64,000 bases of DNA from Fibrobacteria bacterium (GTDB lineage: Bacteria > Fibrobacterota > Fibrobacteria > UBA11236), in assembly GCA_041746255.1 (NCBI GenBank), contig JBGTHM010000005.1, positions 1 through 64,000 on the forward strand. Direction: 5' to 3'. Position 1 is the stretch's first letter, and every line of letters begins with the position of its first letter. Of the stretch, positions 9,227 through 28,517 are shown in pieces. The notes under the pieces were generated by a model. That model was not told the origin of the DNA, did not search any database, and worked only from the letters and a program-made list of their open reading frames with translations. A program made the translations under genes and the position numbers.

Positions 9227-9304
9227 TAGATTTTTCAGCGGGTAAATCGGGTCGAGGATATCGGTAGGAGAAATTGTACCTTGCATGATTTTAGACTTAG
9301 CTCC

Positions 9305-12799: not shown

Positions 12800-13195
12800 A
12801 TGCTAGTTGATACAATGGAAGATGTAATCCGAGAAGAAGACCAATTGGTAAGCATACGCGATGCCGCCAGAATAATCGGTGTTCCCGCCCATACTCTTAG
12901 GTATTGGGAAAAGGAATTTGCTGACTATTTGATACCGCCACGAACCCAGGGTAAACAGCGCCGCTATGGAGACGAACAAATCGATCGGCTCCGCAACATT
13001 TTTCGCATGTTGAAGGAAGAAGGCTACTCGATTGCGGGTGCCAAGCGCTCCTTGAGAAAACAACACCTCAAAGAGAACTCTGTGGTACAACCGGCCAAAG
13101 TGTCCGGGGTCCGGGGTTCAAGCCTGGACCATCTCAGCACCGACATGGCCCAGAAAATCATGGCCCTTGTGCGCAGCCAACTGATGTTTTCCTGA
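12800..13195 (+). CDS. MerR-family transcriptional regulator
   Basis: SIRDAARIIGVPAHTLRYWEKEF...P.RT.GKQRRY...I...L.EEGYSIAGAK; GGAGG RBS before ATG 12800. Confidence 0.9.
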   Translation: MLVDTMEDVIREEDQLVSIRDAARIIGVPAHTLRYWEKEFADYLIPPRTQGKQRRYGDEQIDRLRNIFRMLKEEGYSIAGAKRSLRKQHLKENSVVQPAKVSGVRGSSLDHLSTDMAQKIMALVRSQLMFS

Positions 13196-13235
13196 AATAA
13201 TGGTATAAACTCAACCCGGAAAAACTTAGCGGACA

Positions 13236-16200
13236 ATGCCTCCACATAGCCCATTATACTCCGTTATTATCGTCTCGTATAACGGTAAATCCAACTTGGA
13301 GCGCTGCCTCGACAGCTTGAGAAAAAATCCTCCTGTGCAGGGAGGTCAGGAGATTATTGTGGTAGACAATGACTCACTGGACGGTAGTGCTGATTTCCTG
13401 CGGGAGCAAAAGGACGTCCTCAGCCTGTGGAACCCGGAAAACAGAGGCTTCTCACGTGCCTGTAATCAGGGGGCTGCACAAGCAAGCGGCGAATTCCTGG
13501 TCTTCCTAAACCCCGATACGCAAGTAGGGCCAGGTTGGCTGGAGGGCATGAGCGCCTATTTCGCCGATAAAGCGGTGGGAGCAGTGGGACCCCTTTCCAA
13601 TTATGTCGCCGGTTTGCAGAAAATCGCCTTGCATGCCCGTTGCGAAACCCCGGTTTTTTCGGCGGGGTCGGACTCCGATCTTCCCGTGAAAATCGCCAAT
13701 TTTTGCACTACTCTCTCCCGGGAAAACCGGGGGCTCGGCAAACTGACTAAACTCCTGATTGGATTCTGCCTCATGATTCCCCGCTCACTCTTCTCGGAAA
13801 TGGGAGGTATGGATGAAGATTTATTTCTGGGGAATGACGATTTGGATTTGAGTTGGAGACTTTCTTTACAAAAGCGTAAGCTGGTTGTCGCTACCGATGT
13901 TTTTGTTTTTCATGAGGGCCAGGTCAGCTTCAACTCCCGGGAAAAATCGGATGTGAATGATTTGGTGAAACAATCCACCGACGCTCTATATGCCAAGTTG
14001 GTTCACTATTATGGAGGAGCGGAAAACGTTCCAACTCCCGCGGAAATTTGGGGTATGTCCTGGTTTCAGCCTTCTCCGGAAGCCAAGGCCCGATTTGCAA
14101 AAGCGAAGTCGGAGCTACCGGCTTCAAATCGGGATAGTGATGCGGCCTGGAAAAGCTGGACCCATTGTATCTATTTGCAAGGTGATGTTAACGAAGTAGC
14201 CGGCGCACTCGTCTCCACCCTGGAGTCTTTGCCCGCCACTCCTTGCTTGGACGTTCTATTGCTGAACGCAACGGGAAAAAGCCTTCGTCATGTCTCTACC
14301 CGCATCGATATGCGCGAAAGGCTCTGTACGGAGTCGGCGACACCCTGGGAAGCCTTGCGTGAAAGCCTTCCGCAAGTTACCCGCGAAGGTATTCTCTTCG
14401 TTTGCGCCGGTGTGGAATTCTCGGCGCTGTTTAATTTCTGGTTTGCACGTCAGGCCGACCCCAACGGTCCACCTTTATCGCCATTGATAAAAGTTCCCGC
14501 CTCCGGAGCAGCGGAAAAATCGCGCGAAGACAAACTTCTACCGCCGGGCGCCTGGGCTTTCGCCTGGGGCCGAAAGGCCGTTGAACAATTTTCCGAAGCC
14601 CCCCTCCTGTTGTGGCGCAACGCCCGGCCGGAAACATTCATGTCCACCAACCCACCCGTATTATCAGGGAGCAACCCCATGGCAACTACACAAACTGAAT
14701 CCCCCAGTTGGACCGCTGTTTCCACCTCTGGTGGTACCGCATCCGAAGGCGACAAATACTCCGGTTTCCCGGATTCGTTGCAATCCCATATGCGCGACGC
14801 CCGCGACCTGGGCCTGGCCGGAAAAAGTACCGAGACGCCACCGGTTTTCGGCCCCATAACGGGAATCGATTTGGAAGGCCGTGCCGTCAAACTGGAAAGC
14901 CAGGACGTTTGTATCGTACGCGTTACCCCAGAAATGCATGAAGGATTGCCCGACCGGTTGGCTAATTTCCGCAAGCAAATGCCCGCGTTGAGAAAATTGA
15001 TTGTGCTGATTAAAGATTTCAAACCGGCGCCGGCGGCCGCGCCCGAAGCGAGTGAAGCCGATAAAGTCCGTAATGCCCTATGGCGAGCCGGCTATGTGGT
15101 TCAAGAAGAAACCGGATACGCTGGCCTCGCCGCCGGAGCGAAGAACCTGGGGGAGCGGGGACTGGACGAGAGCGTAGGTCGACAATTCATCGCCGAGCCC
15201 AGGCCGCAAGCCTATACATTGGACAAGATGGTATCCATAATAATTCTGGGCTTCAATCAAGTCGACTATACCCGCCAATGCATCGAGTCTATCCAAGCCG
15301 TTACCCGCCAGCGCATTGAACTCATTTTAGTGGACAATGGCAGCAGTGACAAAACCGCGGAATATTTCCGCAGCGTGTCCGGCGCCAAGGTGGTCATAAA
15401 TGCCGAAAACTTAGGGGTATCGCGCGGATGGAATCAAGGACTTCGCCGCGCCGAGGGGGATTACCTCCTCATTTTCAACAACGATACCTTGGTTACGCCC
15501 GGATGGCTGGAAAACATGGTCCGTCTCGCCGAATGCCATCCCGATATCGGTTTGGTAGGCCCGCGCAGCAATGTCATCAGCGGACCGCAACTCATCGAAA
15601 ACGTCCCTTATAAAAATCGCCCCGAGCTGGAAGAGTTCGCGCGCCAATGGCGCTCCAGCCACGATCTCAGCGCCTGGGAATTCAATCGCGTGACGGGATT
15701 CTGCATGCTTATTCCCCGCCGCGTTTTTTCCAAAGTCGGTTTTTTCGACGAACGCTTCGGCAAAGGAAACTTCGAAGACGACGACTATTGCGTGCGCGCG
15801 AGGCAATACGGTTACCGCCTGATGGTAGCCGATGACAGCTTCGTGCATCATTACGGCAGCCTGAGTTTCCGTAGTAACGATTCCGTCGACTTCAATACGC
15901 AAATGGCGAAGAACCAAGTGCTTTTCCAGCAAAAATGGTCGCGCGGAAAAGCGGCCTTGCACGATACCCAGGTCAGCGAAGAGCCTTCCCACGCTATGAC
16001 CACTTCCCTTTCCGCATGGCGGCTCGAAATCGAAGCCCTGCTGGAAAAAAAGGAATACCCTAAGGCCCTGGAAAAAACCGAGGCCGCGCTTCGCAGCGGA
16101 GAAGATCAGGGAATATGCCTGAACTATATGGGCGTACTGGCTTTGGCCTTCGGAGAAAAATCCCTGGCGTGCCGGAACTTTGAATTGGCCCATGCCGCCT

Positions 16201-17165
16201 CGCCGCATGTAGCCGATATCCAACTCAACTATTTCGACGCATTGATGTTAAATGGCCGTTCCCGCGAGGCTCTGGTTTTCGCGAATAGGATTTTATCCCA
16301 ACCCGCGCTTTCGACTCCGGGTACGGAGGAAAACTGGGAATTGGCTTTGAGCCGGGATTATTTAGCTTGGGCATTGGAATTAGGCGAGCCCGACGCCGAA
16401 ATACTTTTTGCTTCGCGCGAAACCAATAGCCGGGCCGAAAAGCTTCTGCAAGTCGGCCAAGCCGCCGAGGCCCTGCAAATTCTGGAGGAATTTCTTACGC
16501 GCATACCCAACGATTATCAGGCTTGGAACAATTTGGGCATCGCCCAATTCTACCTGAAAGATTTCGACGGAGCACTGGGAAGCTTCGGCAGTTCGCTCGA
16601 ATGCCATCCCCTGGGTGCGGATGCGCTGAGCAACGCCTTGGACGCTGCGCTCAAACTCAAATGCGGCGAAGGCATGGTCCCGGCTTTGGATATCATTCTG
16701 GAACGAAGGCCCGATGCCCGGGCCGTGAGCGACTTACGGGAAATCCTGCGCAAGGAAGGTCGCGGCATCAATGCCTATAAAAACTTGGCGCAGGCCAAAG
16801 CTCTCGCCCCCTATCTTCAGGCCGCGGAAACCAAATTGGAGGCCGGAGACCTTCCCGGCGCCATCGCCGATTTCTCACGCGTGCTCCAGGAACATCCCCA
16901 CAACCCGCGCGCCTTGAACGGCATGGGAGTGACGGCCTTCGCGCAGGGATCGGTCAAAGATGCCTTCGGGCTTTTCCGCGAAGCGCTCAAATACAATCCC
17001 ATGGATCAAGACACGCTCCTCAATCTCTGGGACGCCGCCGAAAAACTCAATTTACGCCGCGAAACCCTCCCGGTTCTGGAGCATGCCTTACGTATCGAAC
17101 CGAAACTCACGGGCGTAAAGACGGCCGTGGCGGAAATGCGGGGACTTTCGGGAATGGGAGCTTGA
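13236..17165 (+). CDS. Large multidomain glycosyltransferase: two GT2 domains plus C-terminal TPRs
   Basis: SVIIVSYN..IIVVDNDS.D..FLNPD and SIIILGFN..LILVDNGS.D..IFNND...FEDDDY; TPR motifs AWNNLGI and ALNGMGV. Confidence 0.9.
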   Translation: MPPHSPLYSVIIVSYNGKSNLERCLDSLRKNPPVQGGQEIIVVDNDSLDGSADFLREQKDVLSLWNPENRGFSRACNQGAAQASGEFLVFLNPDTQVGPGWLEGMSAYFADKAVGAVGPLSNYVAGLQKIALHARCETPVFSAGSDSDLPVKIANFCTTLSRENRGLGKLTKLLIGFCLMIPRSLFSEMGGMDEDLFLGNDDLDLSWRLSLQKRKLVVATDVFVFHEGQVSFNSREKSDVNDLVKQSTDALYAKLVHYYGGAENVPTPAEIWGMSWFQPSPEAKARFAKAKSELPASNRDSDAAWKSWTHCIYLQGDVNEVAGALVSTLESLPATPCLDVLLLNATGKSLRHVSTRIDMRERLCTESATPWEALRESLPQVTREGILFVCAGVEFSALFNFWFARQADPNGPPLSPLIKVPASGAAEKSREDKLLPPGAWAFAWGRKAVEQFSEAPLLLWRNARPETFMSTNPPVLSGSNPMATTQTESPSWTAVSTSGGTASEGDKYSGFPDSLQSHMRDARDLGLAGKSTETPPVFGPITGIDLEGRAVKLESQDVCIVRVTPEMHEGLPDRLANFRKQMPALRKLIVLIKDFKPAPAAAPEASEADKVRNALWRAGYVVQEETGYAGLAAGAKNLGERGLDESVGRQFIAEPRPQAYTLDKMVSIIILGFNQVDYTRQCIESIQAVTRQRIELILVDNGSSDKTAEYFRSVSGAKVVINAENLGVSRGWNQGLRRAEGDYLLIFNNDTLVTPGWLENMVRLAECHPDIGLVGPRSNVISGPQLIENVPYKNRPELEEFARQWRSSHDLSAWEFNRVTGFCMLIPRRVFSKVGFFDERFGKGNFEDDDYCVRARQYGYRLMVADDSFVHHYGSLSFRSNDSVDFNTQMAKNQVLFQQKWSRGKAALHDTQVSEEPSHAMTTSLSAWRLEIEALLEKKEYPKALEKTEAALRSGEDQGICLNYMGVLALAFGEKSLACRNFELAHAASPHVADIQLNYFDALMLNGRSREALVFANRILSQPALSTPGTEENWELALSRDYLAWALELGEPDAEILFASRETNSRAEKLLQVGQAAEALQILEEFLTRIPNDYQAWNNLGIAQFYLKDFDGALGSFGSSLECHPLGADALSNALDAALKLKCGEGMVPALDIILERRPDARAVSDLREILRKEGRGINAYKNLAQAKALAPYLQAAETKLEAGDLPGAIADFSRVLQEHPHNPRALNGMGVTAFAQGSVKDAFGLFREALKYNPMDQDTLLNLWDAAEKLNLRRETLPVLEHALRIEPKLTGVKTAVAEMRGLSGMGA

Positions 17166-18715
17166 GGGTTCCTTCCCGCCCATCCCTGTTGCCCATGAAT
17201 CTCAGCGTTTGCAGTATCATCCGGGACGAATCTTCCCAGATAAAGGCTTGGGCGGATTGCCTGCCTTTAGGTGAAATCGATTGGGTGGTCGTCGATACCG
17301 GATCCATCGACGATTCGCGCGAAATGCTGGAGGGTATGCACATACCCGTTTACCCTTTTTCATGGTGTGACGATTTTTCCGCCGCCCGCAACCATTCCCT
17401 TGATAAAGCCACCCGCGACTGGATACTTTGGCTCGACGCCGACGACAGGATTGATCCGGAAACCTGGCGGCGGATCAAAGGCCTGATTTCGAACGGCCCC
17501 GCCGCCTATCGCTTCAAAATCACCAGCCCGCGCGAAGACGGCAGTGGGGACAGCTTTCGTCAGATTCGCTTATTCCATCGCTCTTACAATCTTCGCTTCG
17601 AAGGCAAGGTGCATGAGCAATTGGCCACCTCCGCACAAAGACAAAGAATCTCCATACTCGATTCCGAAGTGGAAATCCGCCATATCGGATATGCCGACGA
17701 AGCAAGACGCAACCTGAAGCGAGAGAGAAATTTCAAATTGCTGCAAGCTGAAGTCGCAGCCCATCCCAACGATGCCGTCGTGGTGCTGGAGTGGGGTAAT
17801 TGCCTGGGACAGATGGGGCGGTTCCCGGAGGCCCTGCAAGCCTATCATTCTTTGGTTCCCGGCGATACCCAGGCCGACACGCCCGCTCCGGAAGACGAGG
17901 CCTTGCGGATTTTTCCGGAACTCATCGCCGATACTTACGTGAAAATGGGAAGGGAAAACGACGCCTTTTCCTGGTATTTGCTGGCAAGGCAATGGGAACC
18001 CGATGCCCCCATGCCCGCCTATTGGCTCGCTCAGCGCGCTTTGCGCGAAGGGGATTTACCCAAAGCCCTCGAACTTTTCCGGGGAATCGTCTCCGCACCG
18101 GCGCGCATCGGCAGGGTTGCGCGCGACGTCGACTCCGTGCGCCGCAATGCCCTGGCGTTTCTCATAAGCAGCGAATTGGAGCTAACCGGCATGGCATCGG
18201 TTCCCCTGCGCACCTATATGGACGAATTGGTTGCGGGCGACCTGCAACATTTTCCCCTGCAACCTTCCGTGGTCATCGGCTATTTCCGAGATTTACCCCA
18301 AGCCGATAAACTGGTCTCTTTTTGTGAACGCTACCTGGCAGCACACCCGAGAGAAACGGAAGTGTGGATCGATTATCTGGAGGCCTTGTTGATGCTCGAG
18401 CGCCCCCTCGACCTCCTCTCCGCTGCCGCCCGCATGCGCCAAAACCTGCCCGCGCATGGAACGGTCGAAGCGCTCGCGGGAAAAGCCCGCGAAGCCTTGG
18501 ATATTCCCTTCCAGGATATCTACCGACACTACTTTGCCCAATTGCAGAACTTTCCCTCCGATCCGTCGCTGCGGGTTTTCTTTACCGACTGGGTCAATCA
18601 GCATAATCTTCATGCTCAATGCTATTCCGACCTCAAAAGTCTGCGTCGTCCCTCACCCGAATTGCAGGAATTCATCTTACAACTGGAGAATCAGGGCCAC
18701 GGTAAAGGAAAATAG
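17162..18715 (+). CDS. GT2 glycosyltransferase with TPRs (SunS/flagellin-GT-like architecture)
   Basis: VVVDTGSID, DDFSAARN, WILWLDADD, FEGKVHEQ, IRHIGY; alternative ATG at 17195. Confidence 0.9.
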   Translation: MRVPSRPSLLPMNLSVCSIIRDESSQIKAWADCLPLGEIDWVVVDTGSIDDSREMLEGMHIPVYPFSWCDDFSAARNHSLDKATRDWILWLDADDRIDPETWRRIKGLISNGPAAYRFKITSPREDGSGDSFRQIRLFHRSYNLRFEGKVHEQLATSAQRQRISILDSEVEIRHIGYADEARRNLKRERNFKLLQAEVAAHPNDAVVVLEWGNCLGQMGRFPEALQAYHSLVPGDTQADTPAPEDEALRIFPELIADTYVKMGRENDAFSWYLLARQWEPDAPMPAYWLAQRALREGDLPKALELFRGIVSAPARIGRVARDVDSVRRNALAFLISSELELTGMASVPLRTYMDELVAGDLQHFPLQPSVVIGYFRDLPQADKLVSFCERYLAAHPRETEVWIDYLEALLMLERPLDLLSAAARMRQNLPAHGTVEALAGKAREALDIPFQDIYRHYFAQLQNFPSDPSLRVFFTDWVNQHNLHAQCYSDLKSLRRPSPELQEFILQLENQGHGKGK

Positions 18716-18727
18716 GGAGGAATCCCT

Positions 18728-21070
18728 ATGACGAACTCAAAATCCCATCCCCCCGCCACGCGGGAGCTCTTGCAAGCCCTAAAGGGAATCGGAACCCGGC
18801 AAAAGCCATTGATAAGCCCCCATACCCCGAATACTCTTTCGGTGGTGATGATAGTCAAAAACGAAGCCAAAAATATTCGCGCCGCGGTGGAAAGTTTTCA
18901 AGCTTTCGCCGACGAAATCATCGTCAACGATACCGGTTCCACCGATGGCACCCAACAAATTCTGGCCGAACTGGGAGTTGTCTGGTTTCAATCCGAATGG
19001 ATAAACGATTTCAGCCATTCCCGCAATCAAACCTTGGAGCGGGCTTCCTGCAGTTGGATTTTATGGCTCGACGCCGACGATCGCATTCCTGCGGACCAAG
19101 CCGCCACTTTTCGGCGACTGAAAACCGCCCCTCTGGATAGGGCCTTCGGGTTCCAGGTGGTCAATACCCAGGCCGGACGTCCCATAGGCGCGCGTTTCCT
19201 GCAAATCCGCATGTTCCCCAATCATCCTAAAATACGGTTTCGTTACCGTATTCACGAACAAATAATTCACAGTGTCGGGCTTCTGGGTCTACATTGCTTT
19301 TATCTGGAAACCACCATTCACCATACGGGTTATGAAGACGAGCCCCTGAAAAAAATCAAGGCGCGCCGCAATCTCGAAATTCTGGCACAAGAACAGGAAA
19401 GGCTGGCCACCGAGCCCAGTCTGGCCATGAGCGTCGGCGATTCCCACTATATTCTCGAAGAATGGGAGCAAGGCATAGCCGCCTATCAGGCAGCCCTCGC
19501 AGTACCTGCCTGCGAAGAAATCAACCGCGACATTTATAACGAACTCCCCAATTGCATCGGCAGGGGTTTGCAGAAACTGGGCCGCCTCGAGGAAGCGCTT
19601 TCCTGGTTCGACCGCTCGCATACCCTTCAGCCGGGGAAATTGGAACCGCTTTATTACAAAGCCGAATGCATGATGGGTTTGCAAAAAAAAACGGAAGCAC
19701 GAATACTTTTTACGAAGCTGATCGCAATGCCGGACCTCTTGTCCGGTACCGCCAGCCAAAACCATGGCATCCGCGCATTCTCCTATTTCCACCTGGGGAC
19801 TCTATTATACGAAGCCGGTGACTACGAGGAATGCCTGACTACGGCCCAGAGCATGGTGGATAAATTTCCGGAGGTGTTGGAAGGCAGGCAATTGCTGGAA
19901 AAATGCCTCGTGAAAATGAAAGGTTCTCTACCCACCCTTTCGGTGACGATGATAGTGAAAAACGAAGCGAGGAATATACACAGCGCGGTGGAAAGCTTGC
20001 GTTCCGTTGCCGACGAAATCATCGTCAACGATACCGGGTCTACGGACGGTACCCAGCAAATATTGACTGACCTAAGCGTCACATGGTTCCAATCCGAGTG
20101 GAAAGCCGATTTCAGCCATGCCCGCAACCAATCTCTGGAGAAGGCTACAGGAGATTGGATTCTCTGGCTAGATGCCGACGATATTCTCCTCGAAGAGGAT
20201 GCGCGCGCCATCCGCCAGCTCTTAGAAAAACACCCGCATGGTGACCGGGCATTCGGTTTCGTAGTGAAAAATTCGCAGGACCGGGGCAAAACTGGTGCGG
20301 TATTCAACCAGGTTCGGCTTTTTCCCAACCGGCCCGAACTGCGTTTTACTTCTCCGGTGCATGAACAAATCCTTCCAGCGCTGGAAAAGGCGGGGATTCC
20401 GGTGGAGTATACCGGTATCCGAGTCATCCATACCGGCTATACCAGTACGGAAGTCATGCGCGCCAAGCAGGTGCGTAACCGGGAAATTCTCGCTCGGCAA
20501 ATCCGAGAGGGGAGGGAAGTCACATCGGTGACGCTTTTTTCCCTAGGAAATGCCTGCCTGGACTTAAAGGAGTATGAAGAAGCCATTGAGTATTTCCGAC
20601 AGGCTGGAAAAATGGCGGAGGAGCAAAAGAATAACCCCCATATTCGAGAGAGCGCCCCGGTGAAGATAGCCGCCTGCCTTTGCTATCTCGAACGCTTTGC
20701 CGAAGCCTCTGCGTTGCTGAAAGAAGTTTTCCCCGGAGGCCGAGTGACGTCCCATGCCAATCCTGAGGCGATTCTCATACAAGCTCAGGCCGAAGCCGCG
20801 CTGGGAAATGCCGACTTGGCGCGCATGGGATACGAAAGCCTTTTGGATTGCACGGAGGGTCCGGTATTCATTCCGGTGGATTTCCAGCTGCTTAAGGTAA
20901 AAGCCTTGCGGTTCCTGGGGGAATATTGGCAACAGCGTGGACAAGGCGAATTGGCGATAAACCTGCTTAAAGCCGGTATCGCCCTGCAATCTGGCCTTGA
21001 TTTTCGCGTATCCGATTTACACCAGGCCTATGCGAAATGCGGAATACCCCAGGCAATTCCTGGGATTTAA
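18728..21070 (+). CDS. Tandem (GT2-TPR)x2 glycosyltransferase
   Basis: LSV.MIVKNEA.NI...ADEIIVNDTGSTDGT...DFSH.RN...WILWLDADD...HEQI occurs twice, each copy followed by TPRs. Confidence 0.92.
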   Translation: MTNSKSHPPATRELLQALKGIGTRQKPLISPHTPNTLSVVMIVKNEAKNIRAAVESFQAFADEIIVNDTGSTDGTQQILAELGVVWFQSEWINDFSHSRNQTLERASCSWILWLDADDRIPADQAATFRRLKTAPLDRAFGFQVVNTQAGRPIGARFLQIRMFPNHPKIRFRYRIHEQIIHSVGLLGLHCFYLETTIHHTGYEDEPLKKIKARRNLEILAQEQERLATEPSLAMSVGDSHYILEEWEQGIAAYQAALAVPACEEINRDIYNELPNCIGRGLQKLGRLEEALSWFDRSHTLQPGKLEPLYYKAECMMGLQKKTEARILFTKLIAMPDLLSGTASQNHGIRAFSYFHLGTLLYEAGDYEECLTTAQSMVDKFPEVLEGRQLLEKCLVKMKGSLPTLSVTMIVKNEARNIHSAVESLRSVADEIIVNDTGSTDGTQQILTDLSVTWFQSEWKADFSHARNQSLEKATGDWILWLDADDILLEEDARAIRQLLEKHPHGDRAFGFVVKNSQDRGKTGAVFNQVRLFPNRPELRFTSPVHEQILPALEKAGIPVEYTGIRVIHTGYTSTEVMRAKQVRNREILARQIREGREVTSVTLFSLGNACLDLKEYEEAIEYFRQAGKMAEEQKNNPHIRESAPVKIAACLCYLERFAEASALLKEVFPGGRVTSHANPEAILIQAQAEAALGNADLARMGYESLLDCTEGPVFIPVDFQLLKVKALRFLGEYWQQRGQGELAINLLKAGIALQSGLDFRVSDLHQAYAKCGIPQAIPGI

Positions 21071-21567
21071 AGGCCGACGGCCGACATGCCGGCGAGCAGC
21101 TGAGGCTGAGGCTGAGGCTGCCTCTGCCCATTCTCCCTGGAATTCTTTTCCCAAGTCGCCAAAACCTCGACCTCATAATTTAGTGTTGCGCTGTGTTGTG
21201 TCCCAGGACTCCAAGTAAAGCCCCCGGTGACCGGATCCAATTCCAATACCGTTCCGGTAGGATCCTCCAAGCCACTCCCCCTCAAGCCACCGGTTTCCCG
21301 CAGTTTCAACTCCTTGATAAGGAATTTTCCGGACTGCTCCGAAAAAGCAAGCGGGTCATCCAATTTAAACGAAACCGAAAAATCGGGGAGATTATTGCTG
21401 ATTCGCAATCTGGCGATGGGAATATCCCGTCCCCCTAGACGGAAATCAATTCCGGAAATCGAAACGACATCCACCCTATTAATAATAGGGATGCTTCCTC
21501 CCACCTGCATGGAAGCGGGCAGAACGATGGAAATCAGTATAGTCAGCAACGCAAGTGCTTTAAACAT
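21067..21567 (-). CDS. Secreted pilin-like subunit paralog (inverted copy)
   Basis: Signal peptide; shares GG.I..IN, IA....NN...F...F and G.F.W.P..Q..AT.NY.V...A.W with 22313 and 23009. Confidence 0.65.
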   Translation of the reverse strand: MFKALALLTILISIVLPASMQVGGSIPIINRVDVVSISGIDFRLGGRDIPIARLRISNNLPDFSVSFKLDDPLAFSEQSGKFLIKELKLRETGGLRGSGLEDPTGTVLELDPVTGGFTWSPGTQHSATLNYEVEVLATWEKNSRENGQRQPQPQPQLLAGMSAVGL

Positions 21568-22221
21568 GGTATAAGCCTTTCAAGTTTTTGAGGTACTCCG
21601 AGAGGCCGAATCCGTGACCGGAAACCACTCCGCTTATTCCCGCGAATTTCAGCAATTTTGCGAGGCTCGCCGAAAATCGCTTTAGGAATTAAGGAGCTTC
21701 GCTAAAAATAGCTGCTTCACAAATACCCACAAGGGCTAAAATCTTCCCGCAATTCTTAAAACTCCCCTATGCGTATGGGATGGCCGTCGGAAATCCTTTG
21801 GAGACAATCGATTAGGGGATGGGATTACGGGTAATGACGCGCTGGAGGTAAGCTGAATATTTCGGGATCGAAGCTGCGAAAACCCCGGTAACGTACCTCC
21901 CCAGCCCAGGCCCAGCGCCCGGGAAGGGCTCTACGGCGGCCTGCGGACGGAAAGCGCCTACGTAACATCAATGTTTACATCAGGGTTTACGATAATGCTG
22001 GGATTAAGTTGGGTGCTTCGAATACATGGCGATAATTTTTTCAATACCATCGTACATAGTGCATGTAATTTAGCCCCATGTATATGGGAAGATCCTCAAG
22101 AAGGCCCAATTCTATTTGGACACCTGAATAGACCATGCAAATTTTCTTTGCAAAACCGGATCCACCCTCTACAATGGTTGTAGATGTCGGATGTCTTTTG
22201 GATGGACCCAGGATTTAATGC

Positions 22222-22249
22222 TCAAGATCAAAAAAAAGACGGTCGATAT
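22222..22249 (+). promoter_or_regulatory. Sigma28 (FliA)-type promoter of the putative major subunit gene
   Basis: TCAAG-N15-GTCGATAT; same -10 box and spacing as the promoter of the flgM-like gene; consensus TAAA-N15-GCCGATAA. Confidence 0.7.
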
Positions 22250-22312
22250 TGTAAACAAGAACGCCCGTATGGGCTTCGAGAATCAAGAGCAACGTTCACA
22301 AGGAGGTACTAA

Positions 22313-22855
22313 ATGAAACTTATCAATAAAATTAAATCGGGACTCGCTGTCGCCGTACTGTCTACAGGCCTGTCCTACGGTCTCGATGTGACCATGGGTG
22401 GCAACATTCAAACCATTAACTCGATAACGGGAAATGGTGAAATGGGCCTGGATTTCACTTCGCCGGCTACGGATTTTCGTATCGCAACGTTTGTGGTCAA
22501 TAATAACACCTCATCGTTCGATCTTTCCTTCGACCTTAACCATGCAACGGCCATTTTCAACAATGCCACCCATGGAGGCATCGCCATGACCGATGTTTAC
22601 GTGGATAAACTTACGGCGTTCGGCGCTCCCAATGGTGTTCTGGATCCCTTGGTTGCGAGTGGCGCCTCCGGCCCCACCAATTCGAACCTGAAGGTTGTAT
22701 GGGACGCCGCCGGCGTGTGGACATGGGATCCGGTTGACCAAACTGCCGCCACCGTGAACGGACAGCTGGGATTATACGCTTCCTGGGCAGCTTCCGACAA
22801 ATTGGCCGGCTTATATACTGCCGTCGTCACCTGCATATTGACCCCGACCCTTTAA
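22313..22855 (+). CDS. Putative major subunit of a chaperone-usher filament
   Basis: Strong AAGGAGG RBS, signal peptide, beta-rich 180 aa, C-terminal AGLYTAVVTCIL strand, own terminator, upstream of chaperone and usher genes. Confidence 0.7.
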   Translation: MKLINKIKSGLAVAVLSTGLSYGLDVTMGGNIQTINSITGNGEMGLDFTSPATDFRIATFVVNNNTSSFDLSFDLNHATAIFNNATHGGIAMTDVYVDKLTAFGAPNGVLDPLVASGASGPTNSNLKVVWDAAGVWTWDPVDQTAATVNGQLGLYASWAASDKLAGLYTAVVTCILTPTL

Positions 22856-22890
22856 TTGGGGGCCGGTTCTTCTTTAGCGGTTACATAGCC

Positions 22891-22922
22891 AAAAAAGAAG
22901 GGAGGCAACTCCCTTCTTTTTT
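22891..22922. terminator. Intrinsic (bidirectional-type) terminator after the major subunit gene
   Basis: AAAAAAGAAGGGAG-GCAA-CTCCCTTCTTTTTT. Confidence 0.9.
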
Positions 22923-23008
22923 AGTTTTACCGCTTGAATGAAAGCATTTCGCCATGCTAAACTCATTTATCCTTTACCGGAAAGGAATTCTGTAAAGCAG
23001 GCCGAATC

Positions 23009-23551
23009 ATGCCCTATTCCTCTCGAAGCATACCTCCGAATAGGCCAATGTCGGTTTGGAAGGTAGGGTCGATAGTGCTGGGATGGACGCTATTGCTCAC
23101 CCCACCCAAGGTCCTTGCAGGGGTAGGAGACTTACCCGTTATCAACTCATTGCAGGCAATCGGCACCATGGGCCACAACTTCAACCAAGCGGGAAGCAGC
23201 GTTCAAGTCGCAATATTCATGATAAACAATAATCACGCAAATGGTTTCGACATCACTTTTACCTTTGCGAACAGGGGAAAGTTCATTCATGGAGCCAACG
23301 AAATCGCCATGACTTCCATATTACTCGACAAAATGGGAATAGGCACCTTGGGAAACGGGCTGACAGAGCCAAATAATACCGTAGTAACCTTGGACGGAGC
23401 AGGCTCGTGGCTGTGGAACCCCGGCGCCACCCAGACCACAGAGACAAGCAATTACCATGTGCAGCTGAAGGCCAGTTGGCACCATCCTTCCGGCATTCTG
23501 GCAGGCTATTATTATGAAACCGTCAGCGCCACCATATCCATTGGGTTGTAA
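23009..23551 (+). CDS. Putative minor subunit paralog of the chaperone-usher filament
   Basis: Signal peptide; VAIFMINNN..GFDITF, GSWLWNPG.TQT.ETSNY..QLKASW, AGYYYETVSATI; start may be 23048. Confidence 0.7.
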   Translation: MPYSSRSIPPNRPMSVWKVGSIVLGWTLLLTPPKVLAGVGDLPVINSLQAIGTMGHNFNQAGSSVQVAIFMINNNHANGFDITFTFANRGKFIHGANEIAMTSILLDKMGIGTLGNGLTEPNNTVVTLDGAGSWLWNPGATQTTETSNYHVQLKASWHHPSGILAGYYYETVSATISIGL

Positions 23552-23603
23552 GTCATAACTCGCCATTTTTTTGCATGCAACTTGAATTAAACCAGGAGAA
23601 AAG

Positions 23604-24449
23604 ATGATTTCCGTAACCCGGTGCAATGCCCTCGCCATCCTGTCACTTTCGCTGCTGCTACCGGTTCCTAATGCCTATGGAGCTGGGTTCTCCCTGAATC
23701 CCTGGATCATTTTCCTGGAGCCGGATAAAAATAAATTGAGTCACGAACTTATCCTCACCCACGACGCAGGCGACAATTCCGACCTGGGAGCCGGCCCCCG
23801 GGTCCAAGGTCCCCTAGTTGCCCAACCCGTCCCTGTGGAGCTAAAAGTCGTACAGCGGGAGGTAGACATTGAGGGAATGGTCAGGAATAATCTGGACCAG
23901 ATTTCCACCGATTTTGTGGTCTTCCCTTCTCAAATCATCCTCTATCCCGGCGATATCCAAAAGGTGCAATTGCAATGGGTGGGCACTTCACTTCCTTTAT
24001 TTGAAACATCCTATGGATTGATAGCCGAGCAAATCCCGGTGGGAATTCCGGATGCAGGCGGCGCCCCGGTGCGTGGGGGTGTGAACATCATGGTCCGCTA
24101 TGAAGCTATTGTGGTCGTAACACCCAAAGGGGCCACACCCGCAGTCGTGGTAGATACGGCTTATGCTCTAAAAGGGCAAAATGGCTCGGACAGTTTATTC
24201 CTTTTATTTTCCAACCCCGGAACCGGGAGACAATCCCTGGGAGAATGCCACCTCGCTTTGACACCCCGCGATGCCGCCGGCAAGCTGGTGCTTAGGAACA
24301 ATGTGAAGGTTTCCCTCACAGCGGAGGAGTTTCCCATACTGAAACAAGCCTTGTTCGCGCGTGGTAAACGACGCCTGGTTATACCCTGGCCTAAAAATCT
24401 GCCGATTGGTCAGGTTGCCGCCACCTTGGCATGCCCATCGGCAAAATAA
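23604..24449 (+). CDS. PapD-like periplasmic pilus chaperone
   Basis: Signal peptide; FSLNP..I, DFVVFPSQIILYPGD.QKV...W, E.SY.LIAEQIP and NPGTG motifs; AGGAG RBS. Confidence 0.8.
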   Translation: MISVTRCNALAILSLSLLLPVPNAYGAGFSLNPWIIFLEPDKNKLSHELILTHDAGDNSDLGAGPRVQGPLVAQPVPVELKVVQREVDIEGMVRNNLDQISTDFVVFPSQIILYPGDIQKVQLQWVGTSLPLFETSYGLIAEQIPVGIPDAGGAPVRGGVNIMVRYEAIVVVTPKGATPAVVVDTAYALKGQNGSDSLFLLFSNPGTGRQSLGECHLALTPRDAAGKLVLRNNVKVSLTAEEFPILKQALFARGKRRLVIPWPKNLPIGQVAATLACPSAK

Positions 24450-24575
24450 AATGTCCCTCTCTTCCTTCCACCGATTGGAAGGTCAAGTTATCTCTCCGTT
24501 CCTTGCATCACTTTTAAAATAATGCTAGGCTCAATGCATGAGATTTTAATGTTTTTGGTATAGTTTGGGAGTGTG

Positions 24576-24600
24576 CCGGATAACCTTGTCGCTTATCCGG
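24576..24600. repeat. REP-like palindrome between chaperone and usher genes
   Basis: CCGGATAA-N9-TTATCCGG. Confidence 0.5.
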
Positions 24601-24649
24601 TTGGGAGGGCTCATCGATCCCGAACCGTGACTCCAGCCTAAAGAACCCT

Positions 24650-27600
24650 ATGCTGTTTTCCTACCGAAAAAAAGGTCTTTTTTTTCCTTTCACCGGGAAA
24701 TTTTCGGGCATCCTGACACCTTTGCTCATGGTAGGATTTTTGGCTACGAAGCCCGCCCTGCCCCAAGCGGTGGAGGACTTGTTGCAAACAAATCCCCATC
24801 TTGAATCCCAACAGCCGGAAAAAGAAGTTCGCCCTGCAAATATTCGAAAGCCAGCTGCCACTACAACGCCCAAGGCGGAAAAACCACAGGTCGACACTCG
24901 CACAGTAGCCTTGGATAATGGGTTTAACGCCTACCTGGTGGTGAATGGAAGCGCCAAGGATGTTGTGCGCGCTATTACCGGCCCTGAAGTCGGTTCCGAC
25001 ACTCTTTTTCCATCAGGGCAACTTCTGGTTTATCTGTCCCAAATGATGAAACCCGAGAATATCGCCCAATTGGAATCGCTTTCCACTCCGGATAATTGGA
25101 TAAAGCAACAGGATTTACGGGCCATGGGCATTACCGTCAAGTACAATGAGGCCGGCGGCGAGATTTCCCTCTCTGTGCCCTCCAAATATATTTCACCCAG
25201 GCAGACTGCCGCTCCAGATACCACGACGGATCCATCTGCCGCCCCTCAAACCAAGACCTACGCTTTTTCCAAAACCCGCGAAGAACTATTTCGTGAAATT
25301 TTCAAGAGTGAACCTCCACCTCTGCCCGATCGAATTGAGGTTACCCTCAACCTCAACGAACGGAATCTAGGCAAGGTTTGGGTTCGCATACAGAAAAATG
25401 GCGTAGATTATTCCTTTCCCACAACTCCCCTGATGGAAATAATGGCGGAATCCCTCCAGGCCGAAACCGTGCGCGAGTTGGAGGAAAAATTGGATCATTC
25501 CGATACCTTGACTTCGCAATTGTTACGCAGTTGCGGAATTCTTTCGGAATTCAACCTCGCACAATTCACCTTGAACGTGACGATCCCTTCGAACTTGCTG
25601 GCTGTACAAACTCATATGCTCACACCGCAGAGGATCGCCCCCAACCCCTTAACCACCTTGAACCCCAGTATACTTTCCGCATATGTGAACTTCAGGTTGA
25701 ATGAAAGATTTCAGTATTTGCAGAATTCTCCCCGGTCGATTGATACCGGCTTTTTTAGCCAAGGGCAGCTGGTCAGAGCCAATGACCAGTCTCGTCAACC
25801 CTTGCTGGTGCAATTGGATGGAGCGATTAATTACCATGGCGCTGTTTTGGAAGGTGAAGTACTCGCTCAGGAAGACACCGACAATAAAATTTTCGTATGG
25901 GAAAGAAAACCTACCCGCCTGGTATATGATTTTCATCGGCATGCCATTCGATCCATGGCAGGTGATGTCTTATTCCCCACCGCAGGATATCAGCGCTTTC
26001 TCCCCATGGGGGGGGTGGGATTCGCTCGCAATTTCAGCTTGAAGCCCCATGAAATCGCCTATCCTACTGAGCAATACGAATTTTATCTCGAAAACCAGGC
26101 AGAAGTGAAAATCTTTGTAAACGGACAGTTGGTACGCACTCTCTTTTTGAATCCGGGTTCGCATAATCTCAAGGGTATTCCCCTTCTGGCCGGTGAAAGC
26201 GACGTCAATATTTTAATTCGGGATATCAGCGGAAGGGAACAGAAAATGGCATTCTCCACCATTTTTGAACCCTCCTTATTGGCTCCCGGTCGTAGCCTTT
26301 TCTCATACAATCTCGGCTTCCCCTCCCGCAGGCCACATATTTCTGATCCCATTAGAGGAAATGAAGCCGTATTCCTGCATTACGTCTATGAATATGAAAA
26401 CCCCATATTTTCCTTTTTTCACAAGCAGGGATGGACGAACTTCCGCACAGTGGGAGTCTATGGCCAAGTGGGCCCAAAAGAAGGCCTGTTGGGAATGGAA
26501 GGACTCCAGGCGTTGAAAATCGGGAATGCACATCTCGATGTGGCAGGACTATTCGACTCATCCTCCTCATTTGAATTTGCGGGACGATTGGCCTATACCC
26601 GTGTTCCCAAACAGCAACCTGGCGTGGCGCGCACGAAAAAGCTCACTTGGCGCGGAGAAGTTGAATTCTTATCCCGCGGTTTTTCTCCTTTTCACCCTGA
26701 GAATGCTCTCCAGGAAGCCCTGAATTTTACCGGCTTTATGACTTTACCTTATGAGAAAGTCAATGCGAATATCGGTGGCGGCTACTCTTTCCGATATGAC
26801 ACCAGCGGCCTGTACAACATTACGCTTAACCTCAATAAACAATGGAAGAATCGCCTATTAAGCGCGCTTTCGCTCCGATATTACCTGGATAATACTGGAA
26901 TATCCAATACCTCCATTTCAGCCCGCCTCAGTTATTCTTTCTGGAATGAAAATCACGGATTTATCGCCAATCACCGTTCGCAGTCGCATCGGTATGACGT
27001 TTACAACGGTACGGAACCGCGCCAATGGGACAATTACTCCGATATAGCTTGGGAGTATAATACCAGCACACCCTTTCCCATCAATCCCACCGCCTCGACC
27101 GGCTTGAGCTTCAGCCCCGAGACGAATGACTTTGAAGGTCGCCTGGGATTCCGCGCCAATGAAGGACTGGCAGACATTGTGGTACGACGATTGGAACCCA
27201 CGGCCATTTCCACTCAGCGCTTCCATCAAAATTACGCCGAGCTTACCTTAAGAAACGCCTTGGTTTTTGCCGATGGAAGATTCGCCTTGTCGCGTCCCGT
27301 CAACGGCGGCTTCCTTATGGTAAAAGGCATTAAAAGCCATCGCCATTCCGACGTAATGGTCAACCCCAACCAAATCGGGTATGATGCCAAAAGCAACCGC
27401 CTCAATGCTGGAGTACTTCCCAATCTTTCCGCATATAATCTAAAAAACGTGCGATTGGAACCGATAAACCCACCCCTCGGCGCCGGCTTACCGAAGACCG
27501 ATTTTATCCTGTATCCGACCTATAAAGCCGGTTATGCCATTCTGTTGGGCGTGGAAGCGACTACGGTAGCCACCGGAACATTGGTGCAACCGGATGGAGA

Positions 27601-27832
27601 GCCCGTTAAGCACAAGGTTATAAACGTCACTTATCTTGGAGACAAAGATAAGGAAATTATTACAAGTTTTACAAATACGGCGGGTCGTTTCCAATTACCC
27701 TCACTTGTGGCGGGCCGCTACCGCATACAGGTATCAGGACATTCTGATTGGGAACCGGTGGAATTTGAAATTCCGGCCGGAACCGAAGGGCTCCACCTAT
27801 TAGGGGTTTTGGCTATTAAGAGCCGACCTTAG
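24650..27832 (+). CDS. Fimbrial outer-membrane usher protein
   Basis: SAYVNF, RLVYD, GDV...T.GYQ....MGGVG..RNF, V.IFVNG......L.PG, G...V.I.IRD.SG, LLAPG...FSY..G, ALSRPV..GF and FTN.AGRF motifs. Confidence 0.88.
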   Translation: MLFSYRKKGLFFPFTGKFSGILTPLLMVGFLATKPALPQAVEDLLQTNPHLESQQPEKEVRPANIRKPAATTTPKAEKPQVDTRTVALDNGFNAYLVVNGSAKDVVRAITGPEVGSDTLFPSGQLLVYLSQMMKPENIAQLESLSTPDNWIKQQDLRAMGITVKYNEAGGEISLSVPSKYISPRQTAAPDTTTDPSAAPQTKTYAFSKTREELFREIFKSEPPPLPDRIEVTLNLNERNLGKVWVRIQKNGVDYSFPTTPLMEIMAESLQAETVRELEEKLDHSDTLTSQLLRSCGILSEFNLAQFTLNVTIPSNLLAVQTHMLTPQRIAPNPLTTLNPSILSAYVNFRLNERFQYLQNSPRSIDTGFFSQGQLVRANDQSRQPLLVQLDGAINYHGAVLEGEVLAQEDTDNKIFVWERKPTRLVYDFHRHAIRSMAGDVLFPTAGYQRFLPMGGVGFARNFSLKPHEIAYPTEQYEFYLENQAEVKIFVNGQLVRTLFLNPGSHNLKGIPLLAGESDVNILIRDISGREQKMAFSTIFEPSLLAPGRSLFSYNLGFPSRRPHISDPIRGNEAVFLHYVYEYENPIFSFFHKQGWTNFRTVGVYGQVGPKEGLLGMEGLQALKIGNAHLDVAGLFDSSSSFEFAGRLAYTRVPKQQPGVARTKKLTWRGEVEFLSRGFSPFHPENALQEALNFTGFMTLPYEKVNANIGGGYSFRYDTSGLYNITLNLNKQWKNRLLSALSLRYYLDNTGISNTSISARLSYSFWNENHGFIANHRSQSHRYDVYNGTEPRQWDNYSDIAWEYNTSTPFPINPTASTGLSFSPETNDFEGRLGFRANEGLADIVVRRLEPTAISTQRFHQNYAELTLRNALVFADGRFALSRPVNGGFLMVKGIKSHRHSDVMVNPNQIGYDAKSNRLNAGVLPNLSAYNLKNVRLEPINPPLGAGLPKTDFILYPTYKAGYAILLGVEATTVATGTLVQPDGEPVKHKVINVTYLGDKDKEIITSFTNTAGRFQLPSLVAGRYRIQVSGHSDWEPVEFEIPAGTEGLHLLGVLAIKSRP

Positions 27833-27984
27833 AGGCCGGGCCTAAAATCGACTCACAACCATAAACCCGCCGGTATGTCCAGAAATCAATCAGGTTTTCA
27901 GCTCAATTTCGGTGCTAAACTATGGTATTTTCAAAACTTAGTGGTTTTTACGGTAATATTCACCCCACAATTTCGATTTTCAGG

Positions 27985-28012
27985 TTAAGCCCCCCCATTT
28001 TCAAGTCGATAT
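27985..28012 (+). promoter_or_regulatory. Sigma28 (FliA)-type promoter of the flgM-like gene
   Basis: TTAAG-N15-GTCGATAT, ending about 70 bp upstream of ATG 28081. Confidence 0.78.
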
Positions 28013-28080
28013 ACTAATAGCACACAGTGGAGTGGAGGCGACCGCATGAAGTGGTCAAGCCCGAACCAGGGTGGGTAATT

Positions 28081-28368
28081 ATGAAAACAGAAATAGTATC
28101 ACAACTGGCCCATATTCTCAGGCAGGAGCTGAACCCCAAGGACCCTAAGGACTTGAAGGTGAGGAAACCTGTTGATTTCCCCAAGGATGCGGTGGAAATC
28201 AGCAAGTCGACAGAGGCCTTGCTGGTGGCGACCCAGAACGATCTCGAGAAGGAGCAGCAATTCAAGGTGGAACGCCTTAAATCCCTGGTCCAAAGTAATG
28301 GCTACCACCTGGACGACTCTACCATCGAGAATATCGCCGGACGGATTGCTAAAAGCTTATTGATGTAA
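28081..28368 (+). CDS. flgM: FlgM-like anti-sigma28 factor
   Basis: 95 aa; DAVEISK motif and KVERLKSLVQSNGYHLD...IAGRI C-terminus match the FlgM pattern; sigma28-type promoter upstream. Confidence 0.72.
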   Translation: MKTEIVSQLAHILRQELNPKDPKDLKVRKPVDFPKDAVEISKSTEALLVATQNDLEKEQQFKVERLKSLVQSNGYHLDDSTIENIAGRIAKSLLM

Positions 28369-28425: not shown

Positions 28426-28517
28426 GCAACGGATTTCGCTTGCGGAAACCGGCTCCAATCCCCCGATTCGAGCCGGTTTTTTTATTTTACTCCCCCGATG
28501 CGCCACTTAACCTCACC

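Follow-up and report, generated by a model that had tools for sequence, protein, structure and literature searches.

A divergent chaperone-usher cassette with a sigma28-type pilin promoter, inserted into a glycosyltransferase-flgM locus of Fibrobacteria

The window analysed here is a 64,000-nucleotide stretch of Fibrobacteria bacterium UBA11236 (GCA_041746255.1, contig JBGTHM010000005.1, positions 1 to 64,000), and the block of interest lies at 12800..28368. When the sequence was re-read, all of the open reading frames of the block were found where an earlier sequence-only reading had placed them, and the gene content was as described. A MerR-family HTH gene (12800..13195; PF13411, E=1e-21) is followed on the plus strand by three glycosyltransferase genes. 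By Pfam and synteny, GT1 (13236..17165) is a cytoplasmic GT2-GT2-TPR enzyme with two GT2 stretches, and the GT2 gene (17162..18715) encodes a GT2-TPR enzyme with one GT2 domain. GT3 (18728..21070), assigned by PDB match and co-occurrence, is a GmaR/SunS-like (GT2-TPR)x2 enzyme with two. The block therefore has five GT2 domains. Next is subC (21067..21567), a divergent pilin paralogue on the minus strand that converges on GT3 and diverges from subA. The major pilin gene, subA (22313..22855, plus strand), has a sigma28-type promoter in front of it (TCAAG-N15-GTCGATA, 22222..22248, plus strand) and an intrinsic terminator, a 14-bp hairpin with a U tail (22891..22929, plus strand), behind it. It is followed on the same strand by subB, a minor pilin gene (23009..23551) conserved immediately 5' of the chaperone gene, and by genes for a PapD-like periplasmic chaperone (23604..24449) and an outer-membrane usher (24650..27832). 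A sigma70-like site with 8 of 12 matches by eye, below the scanner's cut-off, lies before subB (22934-22963). A second sigma28-type promoter (27985..28011), a flgM-like gene (28081..28368), and sua5/tsaC (28440..29483; Pfam and synteny), all on the plus strand, complete the region.

The genes merR-GT1-GT2-GT3-flgM-sua5 form an old Fibrobacteria locus that is a separate unit from the pilus cassette, with merR as its first gene and sua5/tsaC as its right border. Of 12 same-family loci compared by synteny, 10 have GT3, flgM, and sua5 contiguous, with no pilus genes in between. In one of the other two the contig stops in GT3, and the other is the congener, which has the order of the window. In the congener's genome, GT2-GT3-subC lie on one contig, and the usher, the promoter, and the start of flgM lie on two others. 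Because the same order is seen there, an assembly error does not account for the arrangement. MerR orthologues (47-62% identity) lie immediately 5' of GT1 in 11 of 20 loci, and the GT2 gene is fused to GT3 in G003 and G012. The flgM promoter is also ancestral, and the same motif was found 5' of 14 of 16 flgM orthologues tried. In this genus, a five-gene chaperone-usher cassette, running from subC on the left to the usher on the right, has entered the locus between GT3 and the promoter of flgM; no other genus has it at this position. The cassettes of other genera are flanked by unrelated genes, and in genus g4 subC is downstream of the usher. The sequence-only reading had taken the block to be one system and had proposed that its synteny be checked in relatives, where lack of conservation would count against it. 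As the pilus genes are missing from those 10 loci and the gene order is not kept among relatives, a conserved GT-pilus system was rejected.

As that reading had noted, no flagellar structural gene was found by Pfam within the window. It had also proposed a genome search for fliA, fliC, and the export apparatus. Elsewhere the genome carries fliA, three flagellins, and flhA, together with flgL, flgI, fliD, and six rod/hook matches. FliA is encoded in the region G000:C14:62679-63356, and flagellin on G000:C130. A flagellum-less host with repurposed FliA and FlgM was therefore rejected. The genome has two FlgM paralogues, of which the flgM-like gene of the window is one. This gene scores 17.6 bits against PF04316, where 25 are needed, and its orthologue in G004 passes with 27.2 bits. 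The second paralogue (G000:C88:10413-10718) scores above the cut-off.

The glycosyltransferases are of the cytoplasmic GT2+TPR type and co-occur with flagellin. Hydrophobic N-termini are absent from all of them, in keeping with the earlier statement that they lack signal peptides. The top PDB match of GT3 is GmaR (22ao, E=1e-26), and GmaR acts on flagellin. Listeria GmaR and the GT2-TPR enzymes of clostridial flagellar islands are alike in having GT2 and TPR parts and in being cytoplasmic, whereas the enzymes of the window have tandem double GT2 domains and are linked to flgM and sua5, not to flagellin. A GT3 homologue does adjoin flagellins in G034. The GT2+TPR combination serves as a predictor of flagellin glycosyltransferases in the accessible part of PMC13317340. 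Across 41 genomes, the GT3-bearing and flagellin-bearing sets are identical, with 27 genomes each. The pilus chaperone occurs in 9 of the 41; it is not tracked by GT3 and was not found in 18 of the 27. Among 296 genomes of the phylum, GT3 was counted in 113, fliA in 128, and the chaperone in 39. Since a full flagellum is present and GT3 tracks flagellin, GT1-GT3 most likely modify flagellin. The caveat attached to the sequence-only reading, that a flagellin encoded elsewhere is the target, thus appears to be the likely case. Its central proposal, that the filament subunit occupies the regulatory and perhaps the glycosylation role of flagellin, is not supported, as flagellin genes elsewhere in the genome carry promoters of the type seen before subA.

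The co-occurrence pattern leaves room for the pilin, which may be a second substrate. It could further be argued that a single system comprises the glycosyltransferases, the pilus genes, and flgM, and that in it the pilin receives its sugars in the cytoplasm, ahead of Sec export, and replaces flagellin. Some autotransporters are Sec substrates that are glycosylated in the cytoplasm. The genes are adjacent in both genomes of the genus, pilin and flagellin have the same promoter class, and mature subA contains 18.5% Ser+Thr compared with 16-21% in flagellins. Even so, a single system is very improbable given the flagellins in the genome and the many genomes with GT3 and flagellin in which the chaperone was not found. 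GT3 and the chaperone are unlinked wherever both occur outside this genus, and as subC converges on GT3, the two have no common transcript.

The subC/subA/subB/chaperone/usher cassette is a divergent chaperone-usher system. Its three secreted subunits are paralogous, as had been claimed, with 31% and 27% identity to subA; the strand of subC had to be corrected to minus. SubC does not have the C-terminal AGxY strand motif. SubA has one cysteine, and subB and subC have none. SubA has a signal peptide and a putative N-terminal extension, and its AF2 model (pLDDT 76) predicts an all-beta, Ig-like sandwich with a free N-terminal segment. Its best fold match is to archaeal cannulae (Z 8.4, rmsd 4.5, 129 aligned), not to a chaperone-usher pilin, and is followed by Caf1 (7.0), CfaE/B (6.5), and Csu/CupE (5.7-6.0). 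Many pilins match at Z 5.2-7.0, which is the range of the shared Ig arrangement only. The model had no Foldseek match at E<=0.001. The Foldseek list was headed by the pond fibrils TLP-1a/b (E 0.003-0.02, TM 0.4). Identity with them was rejected because the subunit profiles have no PDB sequence match and the closest model, in the accessible part of PMC11494351, comes from Flavobacteriales.

The window chaperone has no Pfam match of its own and a weak TcfA match under the cut-off. Its family comprises 1118 representatives found, with 150 listed and 35 sampled; 19 of the 35 pass the PapD_N cut-off. A modelled chaperone-subunit complex scored 0.75, compared with 0.24 for the best control, with at least 79% of contacts agreeing between runs and partner pLDDT of at least 72. 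The mark used for this score is reached by 116 of 157 solved pairs and 2 of 215 mismatched pairs. In the model, chaperone strand 160-167 pairs with subunit strand 146-153, which suggests that the chaperone complements the subunit (donor-strand complementation), although the model may score high through likeness to solved chaperone-pilin pairs. The Pfam match of the usher is weak and below the cut-off (PF00577, E=0.0017), but a protein named as a fimbrial usher matches it with 26% identity over 831 columns (E=7e-55). A relative at 31% identity passes PF00577, and 3 of 13 relative rows pass the Usher cut-off. When PDB sequences were searched with profiles of the chaperone and the usher, nothing useful came up. 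An Atlas search returned unnamed clusters only, and the nearest named cluster has SCPU on 14% of its members.

Like the alternate (alpha-clade) pili CFA/I (CfaABCE), Tcf, and Ecp, the system has a chaperone, an usher, and cysteine-poor or cysteine-free subunits with a predicted Ig-like fold. The weak matches to TcfA and, in related ushers, to a TcfC domain are all far under cut-off, and CfaE/CfaB are among the subA fold neighbours. It differs in its larger usher (1060 aa), its Fibrobacterota host, its sigma28 promoter, and in that no tip adhesin was found. The archaic (sigma-clade) pili, Csu of Acinetobacter and CupE of Pseudomonas, share the compact subunit-chaperone-usher operon and are also fold neighbours. 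Archaic pili are recognised by the SCPU family and a conserved disulfide; the window subunits have neither an SCPU Pfam match nor a cysteine pair. The cassette would probably form a fibre with an adhesive role. Another possibility is a sigma28-driven structure that is not an ordinary adhesive pilus, either a tipless, capsule-like polymer such as Caf1 or a fibre or coat associated with the flagellum. No two-domain tip adhesin was seen in the cassettes examined, and an adhesin could be encoded at an unlinked site. Cannulae and Caf1 are among the nearest folds, the cassette is in flagellated genomes only, and it adjoins a flagellin gene in G117 and G060. The Z values are no higher than the shared Ig arrangement gives. 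In addition, at least 91 fliA-positive genomes have no chaperone match (128 have fliA, 36 both), so the cassette is not needed for the flagellum. Such a polymer or coat is quite unlikely.

The matching sigma28-type promoters that had been described before the major subunit and flgM are both present. The pattern TNAAG-N15-GYCGATA occurs twice in the window (22222 and 27985), where 0.06 occurrences would be expected, and none of 100 shuffles has it two times. An earlier matrix built from flagellin sites only separated poorly (subA 11.0, subB and subC about 11, 79 genes at 12 or above). Sites of flgM were therefore added, for a matrix of 14 flagellin and 14 flgM sites with none from this genus; the pattern used to gather them was picked after the window's motif had been seen. 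With this matrix the subA site scores 15.7, the same as the fliD site (0 of 200 shuffles). It is 5th among the genome's 13 sites that are intergenic and lie upstream of a gene. By matrix scan, 19 of 26 loci have the site 5' of the major pilin, wherever the cassette lies; these related genomes share ancestry and are not independent samples. In one usher clade that spans several host families, 17 of 18 loci have it, with first-pilin scores of 11.2-22.9 in families f1 (11 of 11 genes), f13 (5 of 5), and f21 (1 of 1), each reached by 0-7 of 200 shuffles. The score is 10.8 in G129 and 12.0 in a deltaproteobacterial locus, and all 52 control regions score 8.4 or below. No site was found at the other seven first-pilin genes (G102, G117, G275, two in G274, G264, and G143). 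The positive loci fall in one clade ordered by host family (SH-aLRT 89) in a quick usher tree, where clade support is unstarred and reference CFA/I, Tcf, and Ecp ushers are left out. Of twelve more distant loci, only G059, G060, and a single G064 locus have a site of 12 or above upstream of the cassette; sigma28 control therefore does not extend to the family as a whole. A chaperone-usher filament system with a sigma28-type subunit promoter is supported, and conservation of the promoter reaches well outside this locus; the single-system block is not supported.

SubA has a sigma28 (FliA)-type promoter, and its transcription is probably FliA-dependent. A TAAAG-N15/16-CCGATA-type promoter before subA and fliA in the genome are both present, and chaperone-positive genomes carry fliA in 36 of 39 cases and flagellin in the other three. 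The motif could instead be a relic or be read by another sigma factor, with the pilus regulated apart from the flagellum. The modest rank of the subA site (28 of 372 genome-wide sites at 11 or above, 51 being at 15 or above), the several other sigma70-family genes in the genome, and the outlying branches without the site are consistent with this. It is nevertheless unlikely: the site and its spacing are kept throughout the clade except in G102, although the ushers are 30-40% identical, flanking DNA has diverged, and the distance from site to start codon varies from 65 to 283 nt. The G102 loss, the only one in the clade, coincides with a frameshifted pilin gene. In addition, a single FliA scores above the cut-off in the genome.

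A hairpin with a U tail follows the pilin gene in 19 of 21 loci, counted without a shuffle control. The terminator of subA was read from the sequence and was not called by a consensus terminator scanner. Because it closes off the gene, the subA transcript is likely monocistronic. The matrix scan found no sigma28 site before subB, the chaperone, or the usher, nor upstream of merR, and no sigma54 pattern was found upstream of subA, subC, subB, or the usher.

A literature search outside subscription journals returned no FliA-driven chaperone-usher pilus and no study of Fibrobacterota chaperone-usher systems, and no link to either was seen in the accessible part of one preprint (10.1101/2024.11.25.625174). 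A close regulatory likeness is to Bdellovibrio bacteriovorus, which has the same promoter consensus in its FliA regulon, mapped as TTAAG-N16-CCGATA. There FliA drives non-flagellar surface proteins during the swimming phase, and the accessible text has no mention of ushers or fimbriae (PMC3627812). With 13 intergenic sites only, FliA does not look global in the window genome, unlike in the available account of Bdellovibrio. In Synechocystis PCC 6803, the sigma factor SigF, which belongs to group 3, also drives a major pilin gene, pilA1 (PMC2532724). That protein is a type IV pilin, the host is non-flagellated, and the promoter is a different one that is not read by E. coli sigma28.

The reading preferred here, with a probability of roughly 0.72, is a composite block: a flagellin-directed GT-flgM locus and an inserted pilus cassette whose major subunit gene belongs to the late flagellar class. 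The GmaR-like cytoplasmic enzymes of merR-GT1-GT2-GT3 would glycosylate flagellin. The pilus would be built by the usual route of Sec export, donor-strand complementation by the chaperone, and polymerisation at the usher. SubA would be a sigma28 transcription unit with its own terminator, and subB, chaperone, and usher would be outside sigma28 control. As a sigma28 unit, subA would have its product timed to FlgM export, so that the shaft protein is made with flagellin once FlgM exits through the finished hook-basal body. The pilus would then be present on flagellated cells and would probably help them, while motile, to catch hold of surfaces or insoluble substrate. The flagellar-type promoter of the main fibre gene is retained in distant relatives, so the cell probably makes fibre and flagellum together, not alternately. 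A possible but doubtful view is that the flagellar assembly checkpoint has the pilus as a built-in second output. The export machine would be made first, the shaft would be polymerised after FlgM exit, and the fibre would work with the flagellum as an attached or surface-landing partner. In this genus the flagellin enzymes encoded next to it may also coat it with sugar in the cytoplasm.

In enterobacterial models, PapX and MrpJ repress flhD, and pili and flagella are regulated oppositely; FliA goes unmentioned in the accessible part of this review of chaperone-usher regulation (PMC9820224). If the preferred reading is true, a pilin with a flagellin-class promoter across several families would be wired the other way round, with adhesion turned on once the flagellum is complete. 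A defined 27-bp promoter, together with the cognate FliA and FlgM, allows the "swim or stick" assumption to be tested directly. The analysis also provides a sigma28 consensus for the phylum Fibrobacterota, describes a pilus family that is unannotated and present in 39 of 296 of its genomes, and marks merR-GT1-3-flgM as the phylum's probable flagellin-glycosylation locus.

All of the genes that the sequence-only reading had named were found in the window (genome G000, contig C5, 1-64000). There is a MerR gene (12800-13195), followed by three GT2-TPR glycosyltransferase genes, GT1 (13236-17165), GT2 (17162-18715), and GT3 (18728-21070), with 2+1+2 GT2 domains. The pilus cassette contains subC (21067-21567), subA (22313-22855, major pilin), subB (23009-23551, minor pilin), a chaperone (23604-24449), and an usher (24650-27832). 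SubC is on the minus strand and its stop overlaps the GT3 stop. The small subunit proteins are paralogous (31% and 27% identity to subA). The 281-aa chaperone is without a Pfam match of its own, while the 1060-aa usher and the product of flgM (28081-28368) have weak Usher and FlgM matches. The window has exactly two copies of the motif TNAAG-N15-GYCGATA, one before subA (22222-22248) and one before flgM (27985-28011). Only 0.06 copies are expected, and two were reached in 0 of 100 shuffled windows. A GH10 glycoside hydrolase (9281-10474) and a separate glycosyltransferase pair (GT32-like and GT4, 43791-45919) are also present and are unrelated to the pilus.

The cassette represents a divergent version of the chaperone-usher system, belonging by homology to that pathway and predicted to work like it. 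A chaperone profile found 1118 representatives, and 19 of 35 sampled family members were above the PapD_N cut-off. The usher is 26% identical, over 831 columns, to a protein named fimbrial usher. The model of mature subA (pLDDT 76) is an all-beta sandwich whose N-terminal segment is free. Its fold neighbors are donor-strand polymers, none decisive: cannulae (Z 8.4), Caf1 (7.0), CfaE/B (6.5), and Csu (5.7-6.0). Foldseek gave no match to this model at E<=0.001. The chaperone-subA complex model scored 0.75 vs. 0.24 for the best control, with contact agreement of at least 79% and partner pLDDT of at least 72. Of 157 solved pairs, 116 attained the score mark, as did 2 of 215 mismatched pairs; resemblance to solved chaperone-pilin pairs may help the modeled complex to pass. 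In the model, chaperone residues 160-167 pair with the last strand of subA, as in donor-strand complementation. No tip adhesin was found in the cassettes and no cysteine pair in the subunits. The cassette differs from the archaic class in the class features tested here. Weak family matches lean to the alternate (Tcf/CFA) side, and the cassette is not clearly a fit to that class.

Several related cassettes vary in their pilin genes. Near-identical major pilin genes stand in tandem in G003 (L035:10047-11459) and G007 (L044:9149-10372), with a sigma28 site for each copy in G003 and for the first copy only in G007. The G007 cassette and a large PATR-repeat autotransporter-like gene are divergently oriented. 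In G060 (contig C9, L241:4260-9994), a complete 632-aa flagellin gene immediately precedes the genes of a distant chaperone and usher, in the usual pilin position, and no pilin was detected in the 10.6 kb fetched around them.

The conserved putative sigma28-type site before the major pilin is the main finding of this analysis. A matrix was trained on sites upstream of flagellin (14) and flgM (14) genes of other genera and applied to the 300 nt upstream of the first pilin gene of each cassette (27 rows, one of them usher-first and the other 26 pilin genes). Scores of 11.2-22.9, reached by 0-7 of 200 shuffles, were obtained in host families f1 (11/11), f13 (5/5), and f21 (1/1), counts that come from related, non-independent genomes. 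G129 scored 10.8 and a deltaproteobacterial locus 12.0. The maximum in 52 control regions (18 subB, 16 usher, 7 subC, and 11 merR) was 8.4. Seven pilin genes scored at or below 6.1 (G102, G117, G275, two in G274, G264, and G143), and widening their upstream span to 750 nt gave a best score of 8.9 and no rescue. The site is mostly absent from 12 more distant loci. In the host genome, the subA site (15.7) ties with that of fliD. It ranks 28th of 372 sites scoring at least 11 and 5th of the 13 intergenic, gene-upstream sites. Both flgM-like genes, fliD, a flagellin, and the flagellin-like gene are among the genes behind the latter.

A quick tree of the ushers places all 15 promoter-positive rows from Fibrobacterota in a single clade (SH-aLRT 89, not starred), and the subclades within it correspond to host families. 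By gene, 17 of 18 testable members of this clade have the site. The only negative is G102, whose pilin gene is frameshifted, and all other negatives fall outside the clade. In 19 of 21 loci, as counted without a shuffle control, the major pilin gene is followed by a hairpin and U tail. FliA was found in 36 of 39 chaperone-positive genomes and flagellins in the other three. In G013, the contig ends about 2 kb from flhA, where fliA would be expected next.

In G102, the frameshift is near the start of the gene (L220:5460-6046) and the promoter is degenerate; G291 (L222) has no major pilin gene before subB. Each could be decay or assembly error. The G117 cassette (contig C100, L228:598-7245) is divergent from a flagellin gene, and the sigma28 site is at the flagellin, not at the pilin. 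The site is 164-283 nt ahead of the pilin start in f13 and f21 (L219, L224-L227, and L221), so pilin mRNAs begun there would have long leaders, possibly with regulatory RNA structure. The host genome's top-scoring sigma28 site (G000:C90:33074, minus strand) lies before a gene for a WecA/MraY-family sugar-phosphate transferase, a hint that surface-glycan synthesis may be in the FliA regulon.

The glycosyltransferases, pilus genes, and flgM had been proposed to form one system. Synteny around 20 GT3 homologues (12 same-family and 8 other-family loci) does not bear this out. Ten of the 12 same-family loci have flgM and sua5 immediately after GT3 and no pilus gene within, with merR-GT1-(GT2) upstream where the contig reaches. 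One remaining contig ends inside GT3. The other is from the congener G001, which like the window has subC next after GT3; its two usher contigs both continue into the promoter and the start of flgM. The eight other-family loci have the glycosyltransferases without pilus genes, adjoining flagellins in G034, and pilus cassettes of other genera have unrelated neighbors. In this genus, the cassette appears to have entered the block between GT3 and the flgM promoter, and the closeness of the pilus genes to flgM and the glycosyltransferases is a local rearrangement. Cassettes also lie beside flagellar or chemotaxis genes in G117, G060, and G004. Such insertion fits shared regulation and shows no shared biochemistry.

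GT1-GT3 are predicted flagellin glycosyltransferases, because GT3 tracks flagellin, the best solved-structure relative of GT3 is GmaR (E=1e-26), and no signal-like N-terminus was found on the three proteins. Of 41 genomes, 27 have both GT3 and flagellin, and neither was found in the remaining 14; nine of the 41 gave a chaperone match. Among 296 genomes of the phylum, GT3 was found in 113, fliA in 128, and the chaperone in 39, with none of the three in genera g16 (101 genomes) and g15 (19). The tallies for these genes and flagellin take in the unpublished genome G021, on which no conclusion depends by itself. The glycosylation link to the pilus is most likely incidental.

The host genome is 100% complete and contains three flagellins, flgL, flhA, flgI, fliD, six rod/hook matches, and one FliA above the cut-off. 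FliD and the flagellins are preceded by the same sigma28-type motif as subA. The host therefore has its own flagellum genes, and the pilin does not replace flagellin as had been suggested. The window flgM has a FlgM-like paralogue, only 18% identical, at G000:C88:10413-10718 (L257:1414-1722). Each is behind its own sigma28-type site in a genome with a single FliA, and both persist across the family's flagellated members (24 of 41 and 20 of 41 genomes). A divergent flagellin-like gene without the usual N-terminal motif (G000:C88:21541-22371) has a strong sigma28 site, and similar N-truncated matches are found in many relatives.

There are partial precedents for this regulation. FliA drives non-flagellar surface proteins in Bdellovibrio, where the experimentally mapped motif equals the consensus found here (PMC3627812), and Synechocystis has a type IV pilin driven by SigF (PMC2532724). 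A review of chaperone-usher regulation names no FliA and describes pilus regulators that repress flagella (PMC9820224). A FliA-driven chaperone-usher pilus was not found in searches of the open literature, and supplements and regulon tables could hold one.

The cassette would mirror the flagellar hierarchy, with the abundant shaft subunit as a separate sigma28 unit. SubB, the chaperone, and the usher are without a sigma28 site and would be transcribed by read-through or from a putative weak sigma70-like site. In FliA/FlgM regulation, FlgM is exported by the hook-basal body and FliA-class genes are then expressed. Given this established logic and the sigma28 unit, the pilin would be produced upon FlgM export through the hook-basal body, alongside flagellin and FliD. 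Newly flagellated cells would carry the pilus and could plausibly attach upon contact with surfaces or polysaccharide particles.
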